NCBI GenBank assembly: GCA_964648855.1
Contig: CAZYLT010000006.1
Coordinates: 90,001 to 122,000, forward strand
DNA: 32,000 bases
Reading direction: 5' to 3'
Source of the DNA: an uncultured archaeon
GTDB lineage: Archaea; Asgardarchaeota; Thorarchaeia; Thorarchaeales; Thorarchaeaceae
The notes beneath the pieces are model-generated. The model ran no database searches and was not told where the DNA came from. It was given only the letters and a program-made list of their open reading frames with translations. The position numbers and the translations under genes are program-made. This document shows positions 6,859-22,227 of this stretch, piece by piece; position 1 is the stretch's first letter; the number at the start of each line of letters is the position of its first letter.

Positions 6859-7740
6859 CTAACCATGAACTGTTCGAACGAGTTCTGCTTGGAAGTCTGC
6901 GCCCTTTTGCAGTAGCTTCTTGGGGTCGTCAACGATTATTGCAAACCCGAAAGCAACACCATTGTAGTCATTATTGCTATAATACATCTCTGGAGTGGTT
7001 AGGAATTCTTTATCCCATTTCTCTACAACTTCCTGTAGTCTTGGTCTAACAGTACTCACATCGTATAGCCTATGAACCATGACTTCAAACGTATACCTAT
7101 AGACCTCCTCACCCGTTGTCAAGGTCCTGAATTTCTGCATGGCTGTCCCAAGGTAGCCGCTTTTGGCCTCCTCCTCTTGAGTCATGTAATCTTCAGCTCT
7201 CACTCGGAAGTTGGTCAGCTTTGACTCCACAACATCAGAGTTGGGAATAAGCTCTGTTGTTAAATCCGGCTTTGTCACACGTGTATAATTCAGTGTGATG
7301 TCACGGACAATGCCCTCTAAGGACCCCAGTCGAATGTAGTCTCCGATCCTGAACGGCCGCGAGGCAAAGACATACAGGCCGCTCACGACATTACTCAGTG
7401 ACTTGGAAAAGGCAAGACCTACAGCGGTCCCGATAAGAGCACCAAATGCTATTACTCCCTCACCTGCGACCAGATTTGTCACAGCTAGCCCTGCAATCAC
7501 TGCGATGCCGAAGAAAATCAATCTGACAATGAATACGACTCCTGTTGTGGCTTCTTTGGGAAGGCCGGTTCTCTGAAATGAGACCCGAATTGACCGAGCA
7601 ACAATCAGATAGACAATATAGAGGATGATGAGGAATGGAACTATCGCAATATATTGTGCATACGCATCCAGCCCCAAAGGCTGAAGTAGTGTTGCCAAGA
7701 AGTTCACAAAGTCCTGATACGGATTGAAACCCTGCATCAT
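6859..7740 (-). CDS. mscS: Small-conductance mechanosensitive channel family protein (paralog A)
   Basis: GLAFSKSLSNVVSG...RPFRIGDYIRLG...DITLNYTRV...IPNS, colinear with the adjacent paralog. Likely start is ATG at 7740 or 7737. Confidence 0.9.
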   Translation of the reverse strand: MMQGFNPYQDFVNFLATLLQPLGLDAYAQYIAIVPFLIILYIVYLIVARSIRVSFQRTGLPKEATTGVVFIVRLIFFGIAVIAGLAVTNLVAGEGVIAFGALIGTAVGLAFSKSLSNVVSGLYVFASRPFRIGDYIRLGSLEGIVRDITLNYTRVTKPDLTTELIPNSDVVESKLTNFRVRAEDYMTQEEEAKSGYLGTAMQKFRTLTTGEEVYRYTFEVMVHRLYDVSTVRPRLQEVVEKWDKEFLTTPEMYYSNNDYNGVAFGFAIIVDDPKKLLQKGADFQAELVRTVHG

Positions 7741-7817
7741 CGCGAGTATCCTCAGTACCAATGGTGCATTAACGATAATTAAGACTTATGATAATCGAAT
7801 TGGATGGAAATGGGCAC

Positions 7818-8249
7818 CTAAAGATAGTAGAAGACATAGAATGCTATGCCTCCACCAAAGGAATACAGCCATAGAATCAAAGCTGCATACATCAGGCGTC
7901 GGGAGCCACAGAGTAACGGGTCCTTATTCCTGAGCTTAATCATGAATCTGCCTGCAAACAACAACCCGAGGCCAACAGCCACACTTCCGACAATACTATG
8001 AACGATTGTAATCGATTGCCCAATTCCTCCTGTGTATGGGATGAGCGCATCAATATTAAGAATGAGTGAAGGGGCCATTATAGTTAGTACTGTAACAAGG
8101 TTGATGATAGTCGCAATGCCCATTATCATTCCATGTATTTTGTATGGCTTCTTCTTTATCCATCCAGCCACTAACATGATGACCAATGCAGTTTGGATAA
8201 TCAGATTGATGTCGTAAATCAATGCTGCTTGCTGTGAAAATATTCCCAT
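7818..8249 (-). CDS. 4-TM membrane protein, DUF420-like
   Basis: Four hydrophobic helices with His in helices 2 and 3 (KIHGMIM, IVHSIVG) and a ...GIAFYVFYYL C-terminus. TTTAAGGG (TATA-like) at 8288-8281. Confidence 0.75.
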   Translation of the reverse strand: MGIFSQQAALIYDINLIIQTALVIMLVAGWIKKKPYKIHGMIMGIATIINLVTVLTIMAPSLILNIDALIPYTGGIGQSITIVHSIVGSVAVGLGLLFAGRFMIKLRNKDPLLCGSRRLMYAALILWLYSFGGGIAFYVFYYL

Positions 8250-8334
8250 TCCAATCAGTTGTGCATGATGTTGGTGGTTCCCCTTAAATCCTTCTCACAA
8301 CTGATATTGGGGACGAAAGAATGAAGAGAGATGC

Positions 8335-8402
8335 CCAGCACCCCGGGCAGGGGTGTCCGATTCGGCTCACAACTTTACGCCGAACCTTCATCCGCCGCTG
8401 GT
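8335..8402 (-). promoter_or_regulatory. Eukaryote-like SECIS element of vhuU
   Basis: The minus strand reads CCAGC-GGCGG-AUGAA-GGUUCGGC-GUAAAGUUGUGA-GCCGAAUC-GGAC-ACCCCUGCCCGGGGU-GCUGG. This gives an AUGA/GA core, an 8-bp upper helix and an apical AAA, about 80 nt downstream of an in-frame UGA. Confidence 0.85.
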
Positions 8403-8540
8403 TACAATCTCCTTCCGTGCTATCTCGCGACCCTCATCGTCCACGATGGTAAGATGAGCGCCGCAGGATAGTCAGCAGTCGTAGCAGCGAACCACCATTT
8501 CCAGGAGGTTCAGCAGTCCTTCAGGTATGTCGTCTGTCAT
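8388..8540 (-). CDS. vhuU: VhuU: selenocysteine-containing small subunit of a split [NiFeSe] F420-non-reducing hydrogenase (50 aa, Sec at codon 23, TGA 8474-8472)
   Basis: Hand translation gives MTDDIPEGLLNLLEMVVRCYDC-U-LSCGAHLTIVDDEGREIARKEIVTSGG*. The TGA falls at the first Ni-ligand position of the L2 motif (RxYDPCxxCxxH), which the upstream large subunit lacks. Absent from the ORF track. Confidence 0.93.
8420..8471 (-). promoter_or_regulatory. Stem-loop immediately 3' of the Sec UGA (candidate Sec redefinition element)
   Basis: CUAUC/GAUAG, GCGGC/GUCGC and CUCAUC/GAUGAG stack into one hairpin of about 16 bp, starting at the first base after the UGA. Confidence 0.6.
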
Positions 8541-8553
8541 TTTTGTTCACTTC

Positions 8554-9867
8554 TCATATCATGGGGTCTGGTAAGTCCAGACTCTCATGTTCCTTATTCT
8601 CGAATACTTGCTTGGCTGCCTTCAATAGGCTCTTCTCGAGCCCGGCGATGTTATTATTGGTGGCAACTACCATATTCACCTTTGTGATAACGCCATTCTC
8701 ATCAGTCCAGTAGTGGTGGATGAGAGTACCTCTCGGTGCCTCCACACAACCAACACCATTCCCCTTTCTGGGTTCAACATCAGCCAGTTTTACATCTGTA
8801 CTAACAATATCCGGGTCATTGAGGAGAGCTTCCATCTCTTCTACAGCTTGAACCAACTCAATAACTCGGGCCCAGTGGTAGGCAAAGGTAGCATGAATCG
8901 GCCGCCCTAAGGCGTCACGCATTTCCTCCAGGGCCTCTTGGGCAATGGGGGTGGCCATCTTGTCTGCCACGTTTATTCTGGCAAGACTATTAGCCCGCCA
9001 GATGCCCTCCGGATATCCCTTTTGCTTATAGTATACATGTGTGGCGTATGAGTGATTAGAAACGTATTCTCCGTAATATTTGCGGTAATGCTTTGGATTG
9101 AAGTCTTCTACTATCTTACCATCTGGATCCATCACTCTTAGTTTGCCATCATAGATCTCCAGGTTGCCTTTGTCATGCAACCCGAGGTAATAAGTTGGAA
9201 CCACTGCAAGTTTGGTTATGGGATCCCAATAATCCTGCACGACTTTTTTAGCTAGGTCAACAGTATCAAGAGTCTGTTGTTTGGTCTTCTCAATTCGTTT
9301 CAGGAATTCATCTCGCTTTTCCTCTGAAAATGGATTCAACATTCCGCCCGGTGTTGCAGTCACGGGATGGATTGCTTTACCACCTACAGCGGCACACAAT
9401 TCCTGCCCGAACTTCATTACTTCAAGTGCCATCTTGCCTACATCTGGAAGGCTCTTGATGATTTGCACAACGTTGCGCTTCTCAGGCTTAGCAAACGGTC
9501 CTGCAAGAAAGTCGGGCGCAGCAAGTGCAAAGAAATGCAATGCGTGGCTGCTGTACTGTTTCGCGTTTATCAGTAGTCTGCGCAATTTAATAGCAGCAGG
9601 TGGGGGAGTTACTTTCCATGCCGCTTCAACACTTTTCACTGCAGCAAGGTGATGGGGCTCTGGACATATCCCACAGATTCTTGGTGCGATACGTGGTGCT
9701 TCCTCAGCAAATCGTCCCTCCAAGAACTTCTCAAAGAAACGAGTACTACTCACGTTGAATTGAGCATCCTTGACTTTACCATCTTTTCCTAAGACTACGG
9801 TAATTTCACCATGTCCTTCTAGGCGGGTCACTGGTTCAATCCTGATTGTCTTATCGTCTTTGGTCAT
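8554..9867 (-). CDS. vhuA: [NiFe(Se)] hydrogenase large subunit, group 3c (VhuA/MvhA), lacking the C-terminal L2 motif
   Basis: EPVTRLEGHG, L1 motif RICGICPEPH and EAPRGTLIHHY. It ends ...DLPDPMI* without DPCxxCxxH. Confidence 0.95.
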   Translation of the reverse strand: MTKDDKTIRIEPVTRLEGHGEITVVLGKDGKVKDAQFNVSSTRFFEKFLEGRFAEEAPRIAPRICGICPEPHHLAAVKSVEAAWKVTPPPAAIKLRRLLINAKQYSSHALHFFALAAPDFLAGPFAKPEKRNVVQIIKSLPDVGKMALEVMKFGQELCAAVGGKAIHPVTATPGGMLNPFSEEKRDEFLKRIEKTKQQTLDTVDLAKKVVQDYWDPITKLAVVPTYYLGLHDKGNLEIYDGKLRVMDPDGKIVEDFNPKHYRKYYGEYVSNHSYATHVYYKQKGYPEGIWRANSLARINVADKMATPIAQEALEEMRDALGRPIHATFAYHWARVIELVQAVEEMEALLNDPDIVSTDVKLADVEPRKGNGVGCVEAPRGTLIHHYWTDENGVITKVNMVVATNNNIAGLEKSLLKAAKQVFENKEHESLDLPDPMI

Positions 9868-10775
9868 TTCTTCTCCTCCCTTTCTTTTCCTTTCATTTTC
9901 GAAAGATACGAATCTGCATAGTCAGTGAAATAGAATGACCCAATGGGATCTGGGAATGCCGCCTTCAACTCCTCCGGCTCCATCTCAGCAATAGCTCCTA
10001 ATGCCGAAATGATCTTTGCACCATGATCATTTACAGCTGGTGGTGGACCGAAACAACCCTTGCATGGTGTATTGACCGTTGGACACTGTGCTCCACACAT
10101 TCCAATCGTCGCAAATCCAAGGCAGAGATACCCCTGGTCTAATAGACATTTGTCAGGGTCGATATGGCCCTCATGTGCACGATGAAACTTGGTGATATGT
10201 TTGTCCTTCTTTTCCTTTGGACATTCATCGCATACCGTCTTAGTGGGCAGATCGAATGGTTGCCCCTTAATGAGTGCCGTTAATGCTTCCGCAGTGTTGT
10301 CACTTGTTGGTGGGCAACCGGGAAGTCGTACTTCAAAGGAAACAATATCTGGATTTGGGATAATGTGCTCTACAAATCCGGGCATGTTCTCAGTAGGAAT
10401 TCTACCATCCTCGACGGTGTCTGCCTCTAGGAATTTTCGTCGTAGGAGCTCATCTAACGCCCATTGATTTCCAAGACCCTGTACTCCTCCATATACTGAG
10501 CAGGAACCCCATGCCACCAAGACCTTGCTCTTTTTGCGCATGAGCTTTAGTAGATGCTCGTCTTCCTTGGTTCTGCAGCTTCCTTCTACCATACCTATGT
10601 GAATGGAACCATCCGGCATGTTTTCAAGGTCTTTCAACTTGAAGTCAACTACTGCTGGCCAATACACAATCTCTAGTTCAGGTAGAACGTCCAATAGACG
10701 AAGATGCAGGTCGACTAGTGCCTGATCGCATCCCCAGCATGAAGTCAATTGAGCAAGTGCTATTCTCTTTGCCAT
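9864..10775 (-). CDS. vhuG: Hydrogenase small Fe-S subunit (VhuG/MvhG)
   Basis: SCWGC, VEGS, GSCSVYGG, LPGCPP, VCDECP, CLLDQGYLCLG and CGAQCP...PCKGCFGP. Overlaps vhuA by 4 bp. Confidence 0.95.
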   Translation of the reverse strand: MAKRIALAQLTSCWGCDQALVDLHLRLLDVLPELEIVYWPAVVDFKLKDLENMPDGSIHIGMVEGSCRTKEDEHLLKLMRKKSKVLVAWGSCSVYGGVQGLGNQWALDELLRRKFLEADTVEDGRIPTENMPGFVEHIIPNPDIVSFEVRLPGCPPTSDNTAEALTALIKGQPFDLPTKTVCDECPKEKKDKHITKFHRAHEGHIDPDKCLLDQGYLCLGFATIGMCGAQCPTVNTPCKGCFGPPPAVNDHGAKIISALGAIAEMEPEELKAAFPDPIGSFYFTDYADSYLSKMKGKEREEKK

Positions 10776-10776
10776 T

Positions 10777-11241
10777 TTAGTTATCCTTCCCTGCTGGATT
10801 TGGTCCTAGCTTTTTGATTCTCTCTACCATTGCTGTTACGCCCTGAGTAAATACATCACCTTCAGCCGCGCTTGCCCATTGAAGATGGACACGTTGTGAG
10901 TCTATACCCGCCTCCTTCAACATAGTTTGGAGTAACACAAATCTGCCTCTCATCTTGAGGTTACCGCTTGTGTAGTGACAATCACCAGGATGACACCCAC
11001 TGATGAGAACACCGTCTGCGCCTTGATTTAGTGCATCAAGAATGAAAACAGGATCTATTCGCCCCGTGCAGTTGATTCTGATGACCCGCACATTTGAGGG
11101 CATCTGCATCCGGCTTGTTCCCGCAAGGTCTGCCCCGGCATAACTGCACCAGTTGCAGCAAAACGCCAAGATTCGGGGTTCAAAGCCTGACTGCCGCTTC
11201 TTTTTCTTTTTCATGGCTGTCGTCTGACTTACTGATGTCAC
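10777..11241 (-). CDS. vhuD: Hydrogenase [2Fe-2S] subunit D (VhuD/MvhD), all-Cys form
   Basis: ILAFCCNWCSYAGAD, NCTGRID, GADGVLISGCHPGDCHY and WASAAEG. Start is probably GTG at 11241 (GGAGGT upstream) or ATG at 11214. Confidence 0.93.
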   Translation of the reverse strand: MTSVSQTTAMKKKKKRQSGFEPRILAFCCNWCSYAGADLAGTSRMQMPSNVRVIRINCTGRIDPVFILDALNQGADGVLISGCHPGDCHYTSGNLKMRGRFVLLQTMLKEAGIDSQRVHLQWASAAEGDVFTQGVTAMVERIKKLGPNPAGKDN

Positions 11242-11501
11242 GCTGGAATGACCTCCTGCGGCTTGTTGCTCGCTATGATTATTGATTATTAAGATTCTGT
11301 TTAGTCGCACTTTTCTTTGGGCAGAAGCAATCATAATTCTTCTTAGAATTATGGTTTTCAAACACATTGAGATCTAGTGTTTCACGATAGTTTCTCATCC
11401 ACGCATTCATGTCTTTCATCTATCGAGTTTAGCAACAGTTTTTATGTCCCGCTCCTTATGGTACATGAGTTGCTGAGCTATAACTGGAACGGTGAAATGA
11501 T

Positions 11502-11738
11502 TTGATTCTGGCATTCATAATGGCCAAGCTCGAAAGCGCGAAGGCACGGAGAGTACTCGATGATGTTAGAGAACTAGAAGAAGTAATGGAGGCACACCTG
11601 ATATACGGAGCCTATGATCTCATCATCAAGGGGAACTTCAAGACTCCAGAATCATTGAGCTCCTTCGTTGTTGATACTTTGCGCAAGATTGATGGCGTGA
11701 AGGACACCGTAACGAATGTATGTGCTAGTCAGGAATAG
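11502..11738 (+). CDS. Stand-alone Lrp/AsnC ligand-binding (RAM) domain protein
   Basis: EAHLIYGAYDLIIK...IDGVKDTVT matches the RAM pattern. There is no HTH domain, and the gene is divergent from the vhu operon. Confidence 0.88.
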   Translation: MILAFIMAKLESAKARRVLDDVRELEEVMEAHLIYGAYDLIIKGNFKTPESLSSFVVDTLRKIDGVKDTVTNVCASQE

Positions 11739-11770
11739 AGTATCAGGTTCCTCAAAGGATTCTCGCTCTT

Positions 11771-13639
11771 CTAGTGATTTTCATCCAGGTCTAGTCGTTT
11801 CAGGGTTTCCTTCGTTGGCAGTCCTGTTTCTGGGTCCCATCCTCGGACCTCATAGTATTCATCTAGCATTTCATTCAATTCCACAACCTCTCCCTTCGAT
11901 GGCCCTTTCGGCGCAGGCACGTCAGTAAGCCTCTTTGGAAGCTGGTCATCTTTTCGAGTTACACCCCGTCTAGCGTTGAAAAGGCGGTTGAGATTAACTA
12001 TTCTCTCACCAATCTCTCTCAGTTCCTCTGTTGTGAACTCAAGTCCATTATGTATCTTTAGACCGACTGCGACATCATCATAGTAGAATTCAGGCGGTAT
12101 TTGTGTGCCATATTTGCACAATCCAACGCTTTCAACAACGACCATATAGTTCTCTGATTCTGCTACCATGATTCCTTTGTACTTCGGATTCAGTCGTTCA
12201 GCCATCTCGGGAAGATACTCCTCTCCAAAACGCTCCTTTATATCATCATCAAATCCAACTTCGTCCAAGACTGGAAAGGCGTAGAGATGGTCCGCGCCTC
12301 TTGCAGCAGTGACTGCAGCAAGTCCCATCGACTTCTGGGCTCGGGGCTCCTGCCCAGCTATCTCCTGTTTTTTAACAGTCATAACAAACTCTTCAGTTCC
12401 CCGACCAATCTGTTCCGCTGCACGTTGACTCCCTTCGGCGAGGATATCACCAAAACCCTTGCGATAGGCTATCATCCGGGTTAGTTCTACAATTGCTTCA
12501 TGATTGCCCCAACTGAGATCTACACCCCCTGTATCCTCCGCCGTAATAAGGCCCTCATCCCAGGCCTCCATCGCCCAAGATATAGTCCCACCAAGGGAGA
12601 TTGTATCCATTCCGAATTGGTTTGCCAAATGATGGCTATACAGGATTGATTCCACATTCTCATTACCGCATCGAGAACCTAGTGCGGCCTGTGACTCAAA
12701 CTCCGGCGACCCGCCCTCATAACAATAGGGCCCCTTGGGCACTCGTGTGTAACGACCGCATCGCTGCAGACACGCCCAGTCGGACCTTGGCTTCACCAAA
12801 TAGTTTTCATTAATGGCTTCCCCACCGATCTTTTCGTATCCATCGAAGACCCCTTGTTTCATATTATAGGAGGGCAGTCGGCCGATGTTGTGCATCAATT
12901 CGATTAAACTAGTTGTGCCATATTTCGCTCTGTCGGGGGTGAACGGATTATCAAGCATTCGCCGGTGGAACTCATCCATTCGTTTCAGATATACATCCGG
13001 TTCTGCAACCTCAATCTTACCTGTTCCACGAATAGAGATCGCTTTAAGCTTCTTTGACCCCATCACAGCGCCCAGGCCAGAACGAGCCGAGGCTCTATCA
13101 CGGTCATTCATGATCGCTGCAAAACGGACGAGATTCTCTCCAGCTTGACCAATGGCTAGTGTTCGACATCGTATGCCATGGCGCTCTCTCAAAATATCGT
13201 CTGTTTCGAAGACATCCTTTCCCCACAAATCACTCGCATCAAGGATTTCCACTGTTTCATTCCTGATGTTAAGATAGACCGGTTCTTTAGATGCCCCTGT
13301 AAAGAAGATTGCATCATACCCTGCAAGCTTTAATTCTGGCCCCCAAAAACCAGCAGCGTGACTCTCGCCCCATATATCCGTGAGTGGTGAAAGCGCCGCA
13401 ATAACGTGTCTTGATGCCTGTGGAAACATCGAACCAGTGAGTAGACCAGTTGCCATTCCCAGTACATTCTCGGGGGACAGTGGGTCTGTATCAGCAGTTG
13501 TTCTGTCATAGATGACCTTGGATAGAAGGCCTGCACCAAGGAGGTACTTTTGAATTAGTTCTTCATCAAGAGGTTTCTTCTCTATCTCCTTTGATGTGAG
13601 ATTTACCCAAAGGATTTGTCCTCCCACGCCCTTTACCAT
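11771..13639 (-). CDS. aor: Tungsten-containing aldehyde:ferredoxin oxidoreductase family protein (AOR-1)
   Basis: SPLT...ESHAAG..GPELKLAGYD, IGQAGENLVRFA, RSGLGAVMGSKKLKA, GMDTIS, RGADHL and YYEVRGWD. Likely start is ATG at 13639 (MVKGVGG). Confidence 0.93.
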   Translation of the reverse strand: MVKGVGGQILWVNLTSKEIEKKPLDEELIQKYLLGAGLLSKVIYDRTTADTDPLSPENVLGMATGLLTGSMFPQASRHVIAALSPLTDIWGESHAAGFWGPELKLAGYDAIFFTGASKEPVYLNIRNETVEILDASDLWGKDVFETDDILRERHGIRCRTLAIGQAGENLVRFAAIMNDRDRASARSGLGAVMGSKKLKAISIRGTGKIEVAEPDVYLKRMDEFHRRMLDNPFTPDRAKYGTTSLIELMHNIGRLPSYNMKQGVFDGYEKIGGEAINENYLVKPRSDWACLQRCGRYTRVPKGPYCYEGGSPEFESQAALGSRCGNENVESILYSHHLANQFGMDTISLGGTISWAMEAWDEGLITAEDTGGVDLSWGNHEAIVELTRMIAYRKGFGDILAEGSQRAAEQIGRGTEEFVMTVKKQEIAGQEPRAQKSMGLAAVTAARGADHLYAFPVLDEVGFDDDIKERFGEEYLPEMAERLNPKYKGIMVAESENYMVVVESVGLCKYGTQIPPEFYYDDVAVGLKIHNGLEFTTEELREIGERIVNLNRLFNARRGVTRKDDQLPKRLTDVPAPKGPSKGEVVELNEMLDEYYEVRGWDPETGLPTKETLKRLDLDENH

Positions 13640-13640
13640 C

Positions 13641-14126
13641 CTATTCAGCACCTCCATACAGCTTGTCTTCGTGTTCCTCGTACAGCCGTTTCAAACGCCC
13701 ATCTTCGTCCTTTTTCTCAAGGCCTTCGTCAGTTGTCATCCATATGGCAAAAACAGGACATCTCTTGATACACTGACCACATTGAATACATTTGATGGCT
13801 TTGCCCGTATCAGGATTGATTTTTATTGCATCATATGGGCACGCCTCTATGCAATCACCATGGCCTTTGCACTTATTCTTGTCAATAACAACAATCCCCT
13901 TTGATGTTCGCCTGATTGCCTCTTCTGGACATGCCTCAATACACGGTGCATCTTCGCAGTTACGGCAGAATAGTGGAAAATCAAGTCCGTTTTCTAAGCG
14001 TACAATTCTATTCCTTGCCTGTTGTGGACTGATGACTTTGTAAAAGTGCATGCTACATGTCATCGAACAAATCATGCATCCTGTACAGACCTCCGGGTCT
14101 CCAAATACGAATCTTCGAGTAGACAT
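13641..14126 (-). CDS. 4x[4Fe-4S] electron-transfer subunit of AOR-1
   Basis: CTGCMICSMTC, CRNCEDAPCIEACP, CKGHGDCIEACP and KCIQCGQCIKRCP. Confidence 0.92.
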   Translation of the reverse strand: MSTRRFVFGDPEVCTGCMICSMTCSMHFYKVISPQQARNRIVRLENGLDFPLFCRNCEDAPCIEACPEEAIRRTSKGIVVIDKNKCKGHGDCIEACPYDAIKINPDTGKAIKCIQCGQCIKRCPVFAIWMTTDEGLEKKDEDGRLKRLYEEHEDKLYGGAE

Positions 14127-19796: not shown

Positions 19797-21734
19797 TCAT
19801 TGCTGACTAGCAAGCATTTTTCTCTTTTTGAGGTCGTCAGCAACGTAATCCAACCGGAGTTCGTTCAATTTTGACTCTAGGGGAAATCCGGTTTCTAGAT
19901 CACATCCACGGTACTCATAATACTCATCAAGCATCTCGTCCAAGTCGGGAAGTCCGCCCTTGGCGGGGCCTGTGGGCATCGGTTCCTTCAAAAGACGTCT
20001 TGGAAGGGTTTCCTGTTCCCGTGTTATTCCTAAACGATGATTATAGGCCCGTCGAAGATGGCTGATTCGTTCTCCTGTTCTCTTGACGAAGGCTAGGTCT
20101 GTCCAGTCATTCATGCCCGTTAGAGGGGCGATTACGTTGGCAAATGTTTCGTAGTAATAGACTGGTGGCCACATGACACCATACTTGCAGATGACTGCTG
20201 AGTCTGTTAGTGCATACAGGTCCTCCATGTCTTTGATTAGTTCTCCCTTGTACTTTGGACTCATTATTTTCAAAATATCCTCAGCTTTTTCTTCACCAAA
20301 CCGATGTATCGCAATCTCAGGATATCCGAGTTCTTCAAGACTGGAGAGACTGCGGAGATGATCAGCGCCACGTACATTTGTAGCGTAGGTTAATCCTACT
20401 GATTGATGTGCTCTCGGATCCTGACCAGAAGCCTCGAGCCCCTTTGAATGGACCGCATACTTCCACGCCTCTCCTCCGATTATGTCCGCTGCTTCTCGAG
20501 TTCCTTTCGCGAGTATCTCGCCAATGCCCTCCTTTTTCGCAATCAGCTCGACAAGCTCTACCATGGAGTCGATATTACCCCAACTCAAGTCCAACCCATT
20601 CGTGTCCTTCTTGTCTATGATACCTTTCTCCCATAGTTCCATGGCAAACCCAATCGTCTTTCCGCAAGAGATTGTGTCCATCCCAAGAAGGTCGCAACGC
20701 TTGCCGAGATGGAAGACCGATTCAATATCATCATTCATGCAGTTGCTACCAAATGCCATGATGGTTTCGTATTCAGGACCACCCACGGGTGTTGTCTTGA
20801 ACTCCCCTTCATTGACCCTAATAATGTATTTACAGCCGACGACGCAACCATGGCAGGCCTCTTGGGCGATGCGATACTGGTTGGCAATTATCTCAGGGCC
20901 AATTTTGTCTGCGTTCTCAAAATATCCCGTCCAATGATTCTTTGTGGGAAGACGTCCTATTTCATTGATCATTGAAACCAAATCAGTGGTTCCGTACTTT
21001 CTCAAAGACTCAATAGAGCTGGCCCATAGGGGGTCTCTAACTCTTGCCATCTCTTCTTCGTTAGCCTTGAGATATGCGTCCATGTCATGGGCTTCAATGC
21101 CCATTGATCCACTGACAGCAATGCCTTTCACTTTCTTAGAGCCCAAAACTGTTCCAAGTCCCGCTCGACCAGCCGCCCTGTAGTAATCCACTATGATGGC
21201 ACCATAGAGCACCCCGTTTTCCCCAGCAGGTCCTATGACTGCGGTTTCTATTGAGGGGTCTTTGTGTTTTTCTCGAATCATATCCGTGGCGACATTCGTT
21301 TCTCTTCCCCAGAGGTCGGATGCCTCGAGGAGTTCTGCTGTCCCATCCTGAATGAAGAGATAGACTGGTTTTTCTGACCTTCCATTGAAGATAACAAAAT
21401 CATATCCGGCATACTTTAGCTCTGGTCCGAAGAATCCTCCAGAGTGGCTTTCCGCCCAGACTCCGGTGAGCGGTCCCTTTGTGGCAAACATGAATCTTCC
21501 AGAGGGTGAGAACATTGAACCTGTTAGAGGTCCCGTGCCAACAACTAGTACGTTCTCTGGCGATAGTGGGTCTGTTGACGGCCCCGTGCGGTCCCAGAGG
21601 ATTTTGGCAGCCACTCCAGTTCCGCCAAGATAAAGCCTTGCCCATTCTTTCTCCATCTCTTTCTTGTGGATCTTGCCCTTCTCCAAGTCAATGTCTAGGT
21701 ATTTTCCGGCATATCCTTTGTAGGGAAATGTCAT
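19797..21734 (-). CDS. aor: Tungsten-containing aldehyde:ferredoxin oxidoreductase family protein (AOR-2)
   Basis: ESHSGGFFGPELKYAGYD, IGPAGEN, GRAGLGTVLGSKKVK, CHGCVVGC, GPEYET, GMDTIS, DPR and RGADHL. Confidence 0.93.
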   Translation of the reverse strand: MTFPYKGYAGKYLDIDLEKGKIHKKEMEKEWARLYLGGTGVAAKILWDRTGPSTDPLSPENVLVVGTGPLTGSMFSPSGRFMFATKGPLTGVWAESHSGGFFGPELKYAGYDFVIFNGRSEKPVYLFIQDGTAELLEASDLWGRETNVATDMIREKHKDPSIETAVIGPAGENGVLYGAIIVDYYRAAGRAGLGTVLGSKKVKGIAVSGSMGIEAHDMDAYLKANEEEMARVRDPLWASSIESLRKYGTTDLVSMINEIGRLPTKNHWTGYFENADKIGPEIIANQYRIAQEACHGCVVGCKYIIRVNEGEFKTTPVGGPEYETIMAFGSNCMNDDIESVFHLGKRCDLLGMDTISCGKTIGFAMELWEKGIIDKKDTNGLDLSWGNIDSMVELVELIAKKEGIGEILAKGTREAADIIGGEAWKYAVHSKGLEASGQDPRAHQSVGLTYATNVRGADHLRSLSSLEELGYPEIAIHRFGEEKAEDILKIMSPKYKGELIKDMEDLYALTDSAVICKYGVMWPPVYYYETFANVIAPLTGMNDWTDLAFVKRTGERISHLRRAYNHRLGITREQETLPRRLLKEPMPTGPAKGGLPDLDEMLDEYYEYRGCDLETGFPLESKLNELRLDYVADDLKKRKMLASQQ

Positions 21735-21735
21735 C

Positions 21736-22227
21736 TTAGACCTCCTCCTGGACAGTTTGTATCTTCGCTACTGGTTTGATTCCACTCTTGCGACTAAGTA
21801 GTGCATTCTCAGAGAACTCGACGTATTCGATTGCACCATATTCGCATGCCTTTACACACGCTGGGTCCCCATCACACAGGTCACACTTTGCCGCTTTCTT
21901 CAATACTGGATCCATTGAGATTCCCCCATAGATACAAGCTGTCACACATCTCCCGCAACCTATACAGATGTCAGGTTCCACGTAGAGTGCCCCGCTGGAG
22001 TTTGGTCTAATGGCCCCCGTTGGGCATGCACCGTGGCAGAGGGGGTCCTCGCACTGGAGACACACCATGGGCAGAATGATGCCCTTTTTCTCATTCTTTA
22101 TGACCTTGATTCGAGACTGGCTCGGATTGAATGTTCTATAGTGCGCCACCGAACATGCGAGCTCGCAATTACGGCAGCCTGTGCATTTTTGGACATCAAT
22201 TGTTAGGATGTGTTTCATTTTTTCCAT
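21736..22227 (-). CDS. 4x[4Fe-4S] electron-transfer subunit of AOR-2
   Basis: CTGCRNCELAC, CLQCEDPLCHGACP, CIGCGRCVTAC and KCDLCDGDPACVKAC. Confidence 0.92.
   Translation of the reverse strand: MEKMKHILTIDVQKCTGCRNCELACSVAHYRTFNPSQSRIKVIKNEKKGIILPMVCLQCEDPLCHGACPTGAIRPNSSGALYVEPDICIGCGRCVTACIYGGISMDPVLKKAAKCDLCDGDPACVKACEYGAIEYVEFSENALLSRKSGIKPVAKIQTVQEEV

Follow-up and report, generated by a model that had tools for sequence, protein, structure and literature searches.

In [NiFeSe] hydrogenases, selenocysteine (Sec) occupies the position of the first cysteine of the C-terminal ligand motif (Mariotti et al. 2016, PMC4989117). In the same work the VhuU.1 protein of Lokiarchaeum was described as a selenoprotein with a lokiSECIS, in which the AUGA of the core doubles as the UGA stop codon, and it was argued that the placement of the stop UGA inside the SECIS core prevents its recoding. 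A later survey of over 400 Asgard genomes covered Sec-VhuU and SECIS elements (Huang, Xiao and Zhang 2024, PMC11227280). It reported Sec use in 77.4% of Thorarchaeia, a selenoprotein form of the FrhA/MvhA/VhuU family in 68.3% of the Sec-using Asgard archaea, and a SECIS loop starting with G[U/G]AAA in most Thorarchaeial frhA/vhuU genes. A large subunit split into VhuA and VhuU is also known from the Methanococcales, where chains of 418 and 27 amino acids are found in the solved enzyme (PDB 9sfi/9t1s).

The locus described here lies within a stretch of 32,000 nucleotides from an uncultured archaeon of the Thorarchaeaceae (the window), and its features, all on the minus strand, are as follows.

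10777-11367 (longest ORF), minus strand: mvhD/vhuD, all-Cys form (Pfam FlpD PF02662, 177 bits)
9864-10775, minus strand: vhuG, hydrogenase small subunit (Pfam Oxidored_q6 PF01058, 71.8 bits)
8554-9867, minus strand: vhuA, C-terminally truncated [NiFe(Se)] hydrogenase large subunit (Pfam NiFeSe_Hases)
8388-8540, minus strand: vhuU, 50 codons and a stop, predicted to supply Sec23, Cys26 (CU-LSC-GAH), His30 and a 21-residue tail
8472-8474, minus strand: UGA, codon 23 of vhuU, predicted to be read as selenocysteine; aligns with the first Cys of DPCLSC in FrhA (3zfs_A, 7t2r_D and 9sw2_F)
8316-8407, minus strand: SECIS of the type I eukaryote-like Asgard form, recognized by its fit to the published model, by covariation and by a covariance model

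Like Lokiarchaeum VhuU.1, the gene has about 50 codons, one of them for Sec, is located beside vhuA and vhuG, and is followed directly by a kink-turn SECIS of the AUGA...GA/AA form with the stop inside the AUGA. The two elements differ in the 3' core, which is GA here and was reported to be AA in Loki, in the loop, which has 12 nt starting GUAAA here as against 11 A-rich nt, and in the first stem position, an A.G in the window. With the Thorarchaeial frhA/vhuU genes that carry type I eSECIS-like elements (PMC11227280) the locus shares clade, gene family and SECIS model, as well as the G[U/G]AAA loop start and the [U/C]GG_C[C/U][A/G] lower stem; there is no essential difference from those genes, and the extra hairpin described below does not appear in the main text of that study. 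The enzyme of the Methanococcales has its large subunit split at the same position, its small peptide likewise bears a Sec/Cys ligand pair (and is processed there after the His), and vhuD and vhuG belong to the operon in both cases. However, euryarchaeal vhuU genes have a GAA_A-bulge SECIS and not a kink-turn (PMC4989117, PMC11227280), MvhD is all-Cys here whereas the VhuD of Methanococcales has two Sec, and Asgard VhuU reads DCU where DPU is found elsewhere.

The vhuU gene and its recoding signal in the window are real, were correctly read in the preliminary description of this DNA, and have already been described for Loki- and Thorarchaeota (PMC4989117, PMC11227280). That description rightly took the Sec-containing VhuA and VhuU split to be established for Methanococcales and Lokiarchaeota, and it is documented for Thorarchaeia too (PMC11227280). 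The locus is one further Thorarchaeial case of a published trait, namely the use of Sec with a eukaryote-like SECIS in Asgard archaea, and raises no new question of its own.

A large subunit divided between VhuA and VhuU

VhuA has 437 amino acids and ends in ...LPDPMI-TGA. It has the N-terminal ligand motif RICGIC (Cys65 and Cys68) and has no C-terminal DPCxxCxxH, in agreement with the earlier remark that vhuA stops before the C-terminal Ni-Fe ligands. Its closest relative, with 97% identity, is found in the Thorarchaeota MAG TEKIR_14. Among solved structures, the best match is the split large subunit 9sfi_g of 418 amino acids (E 3e-128), followed by MvhA of the Mvh-Hdr complexes (5odc_F), of which residues 4-419 of 473 are covered. 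VhuA residues 8-423 align to these residues of 5odc_F and VhuU residues 4-34 to its residues 423-451, with CU-LSC-GAH placed on PC-LSC-ATH, so that between them the products tile one full-length large subunit. The 27-residue small chain 9sfi_M aligns to VhuU residues 5-30 with its last residue opposite His30, as would be expected if the tail is removed by proteolysis, and the genome encodes a HycI-family endopeptidase (58 bits).

Taken together, the sequence data make it very probable that vhuU belongs to a Thorarchaeial mvhD-vhuG-vhuA-vhuU operon for a cytoplasmic group-3c (Mvh/Vhu-type) [NiFeSe] hydrogenase with a split large subunit, and that its internal UGA is decoded as Sec. In such an enzyme VhuA would bring the two N-terminal metal ligands, Cys65 and Cys68, and VhuU the two C-terminal ones, Sec23 and Cys26. 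The precursor of VhuU would assemble with VhuA, the HycI-family endopeptidase would presumably cut after His30 once the metal has been inserted, so that the 21-residue tail is lost, and a peptide of about 30 residues would stay bound to VhuA after cleavage. A heterodisulfide-reductase-like partner may receive the electrons by way of VhuG and MvhD. Since gene callers leave the hydrogenase apparently without its ligands, metabolic reconstruction could wrongly score an Mvh/Vhu hydrogenase such as this one as broken.

The first gene of the operon, mvhD, probably starts at Met52, near 11214, rather than at the beginning of the longest ORF. MvhD was considered as a second selenoprotein, as it is in Methanococcales and Loki, and was rejected: no in-frame TGA was found inside its FlpD domain, all cysteines of the protein are encoded as Cys, and an in-frame stop was likewise absent from all eight FlpD-domain copies of the genome. 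Genes for tungsten-type aldehyde:ferredoxin oxidoreductases were also observed in the window as two pairs (11771-14126 and 19797-22227), each immediately preceded by a 4Fe-4S ferredoxin-like gene; one of the pairs adjoins the hydrogenase operon on its upstream side.

The in-frame UGA of vhuU

The vhuU frame starts with ATG after a spacing of 13 nt from vhuA (8553-8541). Read from 8540 to 8388 with TGA as U, its minus-strand translation is MTDDIPEGLLNLLEMVVRCYDC-U-LSCGAH-LTIVDDEGREIARKEIVTSGG-stop. Codon 23 is the TGA at 8474-8472 (TCA on the plus strand), 21 residues follow His30, and the frame terminates at a second TGA, its last bases being GGA-TGA. In the preliminary description a 50-codon frame with an internal TGA was placed after a 13-nt gap, and all of its coordinates proved to be correct. 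The UGA was there assigned to the first ligand position of DPCxxCxxH, and indeed YDC-U-LSC-GAH aligns to YDPCLSCATH in 3zfs_A, 7t2r_D and 9sw2_F; the 21-aa tail proposed to follow the His is present in the translated frame. It was also claimed that standard gene callers overlook the gene. No minus-strand ORF of at least 40 aa was listed at this position under table 11, so that an ordinary ORF track does miss vhuU.

All 20 other vhuU genes that were detected have a TGA at this codon. These comprise 14 Asgard loci in which vhuU lies beside vhuA (of Thor-, Atabey-, Borr- and other lineages), five further Thorarchaeial loci, and a second copy in the archaeon's own genome; TGA is the stop codon in all of them as well. 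None of the homologues examined has a Cys at the UGA position, and the TGC or TGT that an assembly error might have concealed at 8472-8474 is thus seen neither in the window nor in the other 20 genes. Compared to the closest orthologue (L021), the codons past the UGA show five synonymous changes and no non-synonymous ones, and LSC[GA]AH is invariant after the UGA among the homologues, which argues that the vhuU frame is translated beyond the UGA.

Another feature of the site is the residue in front of it. Cys22 (8475-8477) directly precedes Sec in all Asgard VhuU, including the 20 homologues (RCYDCU), while other hydrogenases have a Pro at this place (DPC/DPU).

The SECIS element

The region 3' of vhuU is accounted for by a kink-turn element, the parts of which are listed here.

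8398-8401 with 8335-8338, minus strand: helix I
8388-8391, minus strand: AUGA core, the UGA within it being the vhuU stop
8379-8386 with 8359-8366, minus strand: helix II, 8 contiguous pairs
8367-8378, minus strand: apical loop GUAAAGUUGUGA, 12 nt, starting GUAAA
8356-8357, minus strand: core GA
8350-8355 with 8339-8344, minus strand: extra hairpin

In the direction of transcription the AUGA is followed by an unpaired A, the 8-pair stem, the 12-nt loop, a G, and then the GA at 8357-8356, and the core lies 84 nt downstream of the Sec codon. In the published model of the type I Asgard SECIS a GA_[G/A]A core is combined with a loop of 8-20 nt and with an upper stem whose 7-15 bp may include up to two mismatches (PMC11227280). 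The vhuU element agrees with this model in its AUGA...[G/A]A core, in its stem, in its loop length and in the unpaired adenines near the 5' end of the loop. Its upper stem has 10-11 positions with two mismatches, the eight contiguous pairs being those listed above; position 1 is the A.G mismatch.

Comparative data support the pairing. Across 18 homologous elements helix II is 89.4% paired, with compensatory changes in seven of its nine pairs, and its covariation score of 0.578, as against 0.321 in shuffles, was reached in none of 500 column shuffles. When the register of the helix was slid, pairing amounted to at most 45%. A covariance model of the vhuU SECIS gave 80.2 bits at the element in the window, and in a scan of the whole genome it recovered only the two vhuU elements and one weak match of 20 bits on contig C20. 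The latter was rejected as a chance match, as it is located inside an ordinary ORF of 249 aa without TGA. A scan of 7500-12000 against Rfam with E values up to 10 returned no SECIS family, and none was expected, since the Asgard form is absent from Rfam. The single-sequence fold of the vhuU 3' region was not significantly more stable than its shuffles (z -1.4). With the fold energy being unexceptional, the support for a SECIS RNA is comparative and not energetic. A hairpin search that required perfect stems was unsuccessful in half of the sequences, and the mismatch-tolerant published model was used instead; within the limits applied, the type I model was not matched at two Atabeyarchaeia loci, L049 and L050.

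When the AUGA is constrained to be unpaired, almost every Thorarchaeial vhuU element folds at minimum energy into three helices. Besides a closing helix and the upper stem there is a small hairpin, which follows the core GA, precedes the closing helix's 3' strand and has a CGCAA loop in most relatives. Elements of this kind were seen in the window (8335-8407, minus strand) and at L021, L030, L033, L038-L044, L101-L104, L106 and L110. Compensatory changes occur in all three helices of a 21-element alignment, which, being fitted to the model, leans towards the fitted structure. The third hairpin is not mentioned in the main texts of PMC4989117 and PMC11227280. We tentatively raise, as an idea that is rather unlikely to hold in full, that the Thorarchaeial vhuU SECIS is a three-helix, k-junction-like element whose hairpin on the non-bulged strand could contact the archaeal SECIS-binding factor, and that the invariant Cys before Sec (DCU and not DPU) might form a protective selenenyl-sulfide with it.

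At two of the related loci (L033:4040-5070 and L106:160-1470) the last codons of vhuU (...LVLGGG-TGA) and the SECIS are repeated about 1 kb downstream of the real copy, and the duplicated elements are matched by the covariance model with 31 and 59 bits, respectively. Between the SECIS copies lie genes that, by eye, resemble a nucleotidyltransferase and a HEPN-type partner. It looks as if a toxin-antitoxin-like cassette, with these by-eye candidates as its genes, had entered the locus and the SECIS had been duplicated in the process.

Sec machinery and the probable decoding of the UGA

A full Sec machinery had been predicted to be encoded elsewhere in the genome, and we have found all of its parts, tRNA-Sec, PSTK, SepSecS, SelB and SelD, so that the genome is not one that lacks the means to insert Sec. 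The genes for PSTK, tRNA-Sec, SepSecS and SelB/EFSec are clustered on the window's own contig (G000:C6:54.4-58.6 kb), 31-36 kb upstream of the window. The tRNA-Sec scored 54.7 bits, above the Rfam cut-off, and was called SeC(tca) by ARAGORN; SepSecS scored 397 bits and SelB 281 bits, the latter above its cut-off. The PSTK match of 143 bits is below the curated NCBIfam cut-off of 290 bits, and is the sole match in the genome and adjoins tRNA-Sec. SelD (215 bits) is encoded on another contig (G000:C12:37315-38130, L005) with one in-frame TGA, which indicates that selD is itself a selenoprotein gene that is split by ORF callers. On this basis, the UGA at codon 23 would be decoded by Sec-tRNA(Sec) delivered by archaeal SelB/EFSec, the delivery being directed by the 3' kink-turn SECIS, while the UGA of the core would serve for termination, as the vhuU stop presumably cannot be recoded so near to, or within, the SECIS.

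Other readings of the UGA were also considered. A TGA is one base away from TGC and TGT, and with a contamination of 4.75% errors are possible in this MAG, so that faulty sequencing or assembly, or a nonsense mutation that arose recently in a Cys codon, could have turned a Cys-VhuU into its present form or left a pseudogene. We see hardly any chance of this. Twenty other vhuU genes of different assemblies, among them the paralogue on contig C23, share this TGA, no homologue has a Cys at the site, and selection acts on the codons downstream, which together exclude an assembly error or a pseudogene for practical purposes; the covarying SECIS and the complete Sec machinery speak against an error as well. 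It is also compatible with the sequence taken alone that the UGA is recoded to another residue, be it Cys or Trp by near-cognate read-through or as a result of a reassigned code. This is very improbable in view of the site, which is a metal-ligand Cys/Sec position, and of the dedicated tRNA-Sec (anticodon tca), SepSecS, PSTK, SelB and SelD; furthermore, vhuA and vhuU both stop at TGA, and UGA is therefore not reassigned genome-wide.

Whether the UGA might be a true stop, giving a peptide of 22 residues or nothing, with the truncated VhuA being inactive or taking its ligands from another protein, bears on the loci at which VhuA appears to be alone. Many Asgard loci (L022-L029, L032, L034-L037, L045, L046, L048 and L052) have a truncated vhuA ending LPDPMI/K and no vhuU within 2.5 kb, and among Thorarchaeial loci at which vhuA is truncated about half are of this kind, which means that a vhuA gene can stand without its partner next to it. 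However, in four of five such genomes that were checked a Sec-vhuU is encoded elsewhere, on another contig, suggesting that one VhuU may serve several VhuA paralogues. Moreover, the codons after the UGA, including those of the second ligand Cys and the His, are conserved at the protein level, and the small chain is present in the solved split enzyme 9sfi. A true stop is accordingly a very unlikely reading, and decoding of the UGA as Sec is much the better one.

A second vhuA-vhuU operon is found in the same genome (G000:C23:1260-2814, L110). The two VhuA proteins have 68% identity. The two vhuU copies are identical in 80 of 81 nt over codons 24-50 and in 58 of 66 over codons 1-22, and downstream of the SECIS the DNA of the two copies is unrelated. 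This pattern of sequence identity suggests that gene conversion has taken place between the window and C23 copies over the 3' half of vhuU and the SECIS. In the C23 vhuU an ATA stands in place of the ATG of the window, and its start is probably a TTG five codons upstream.
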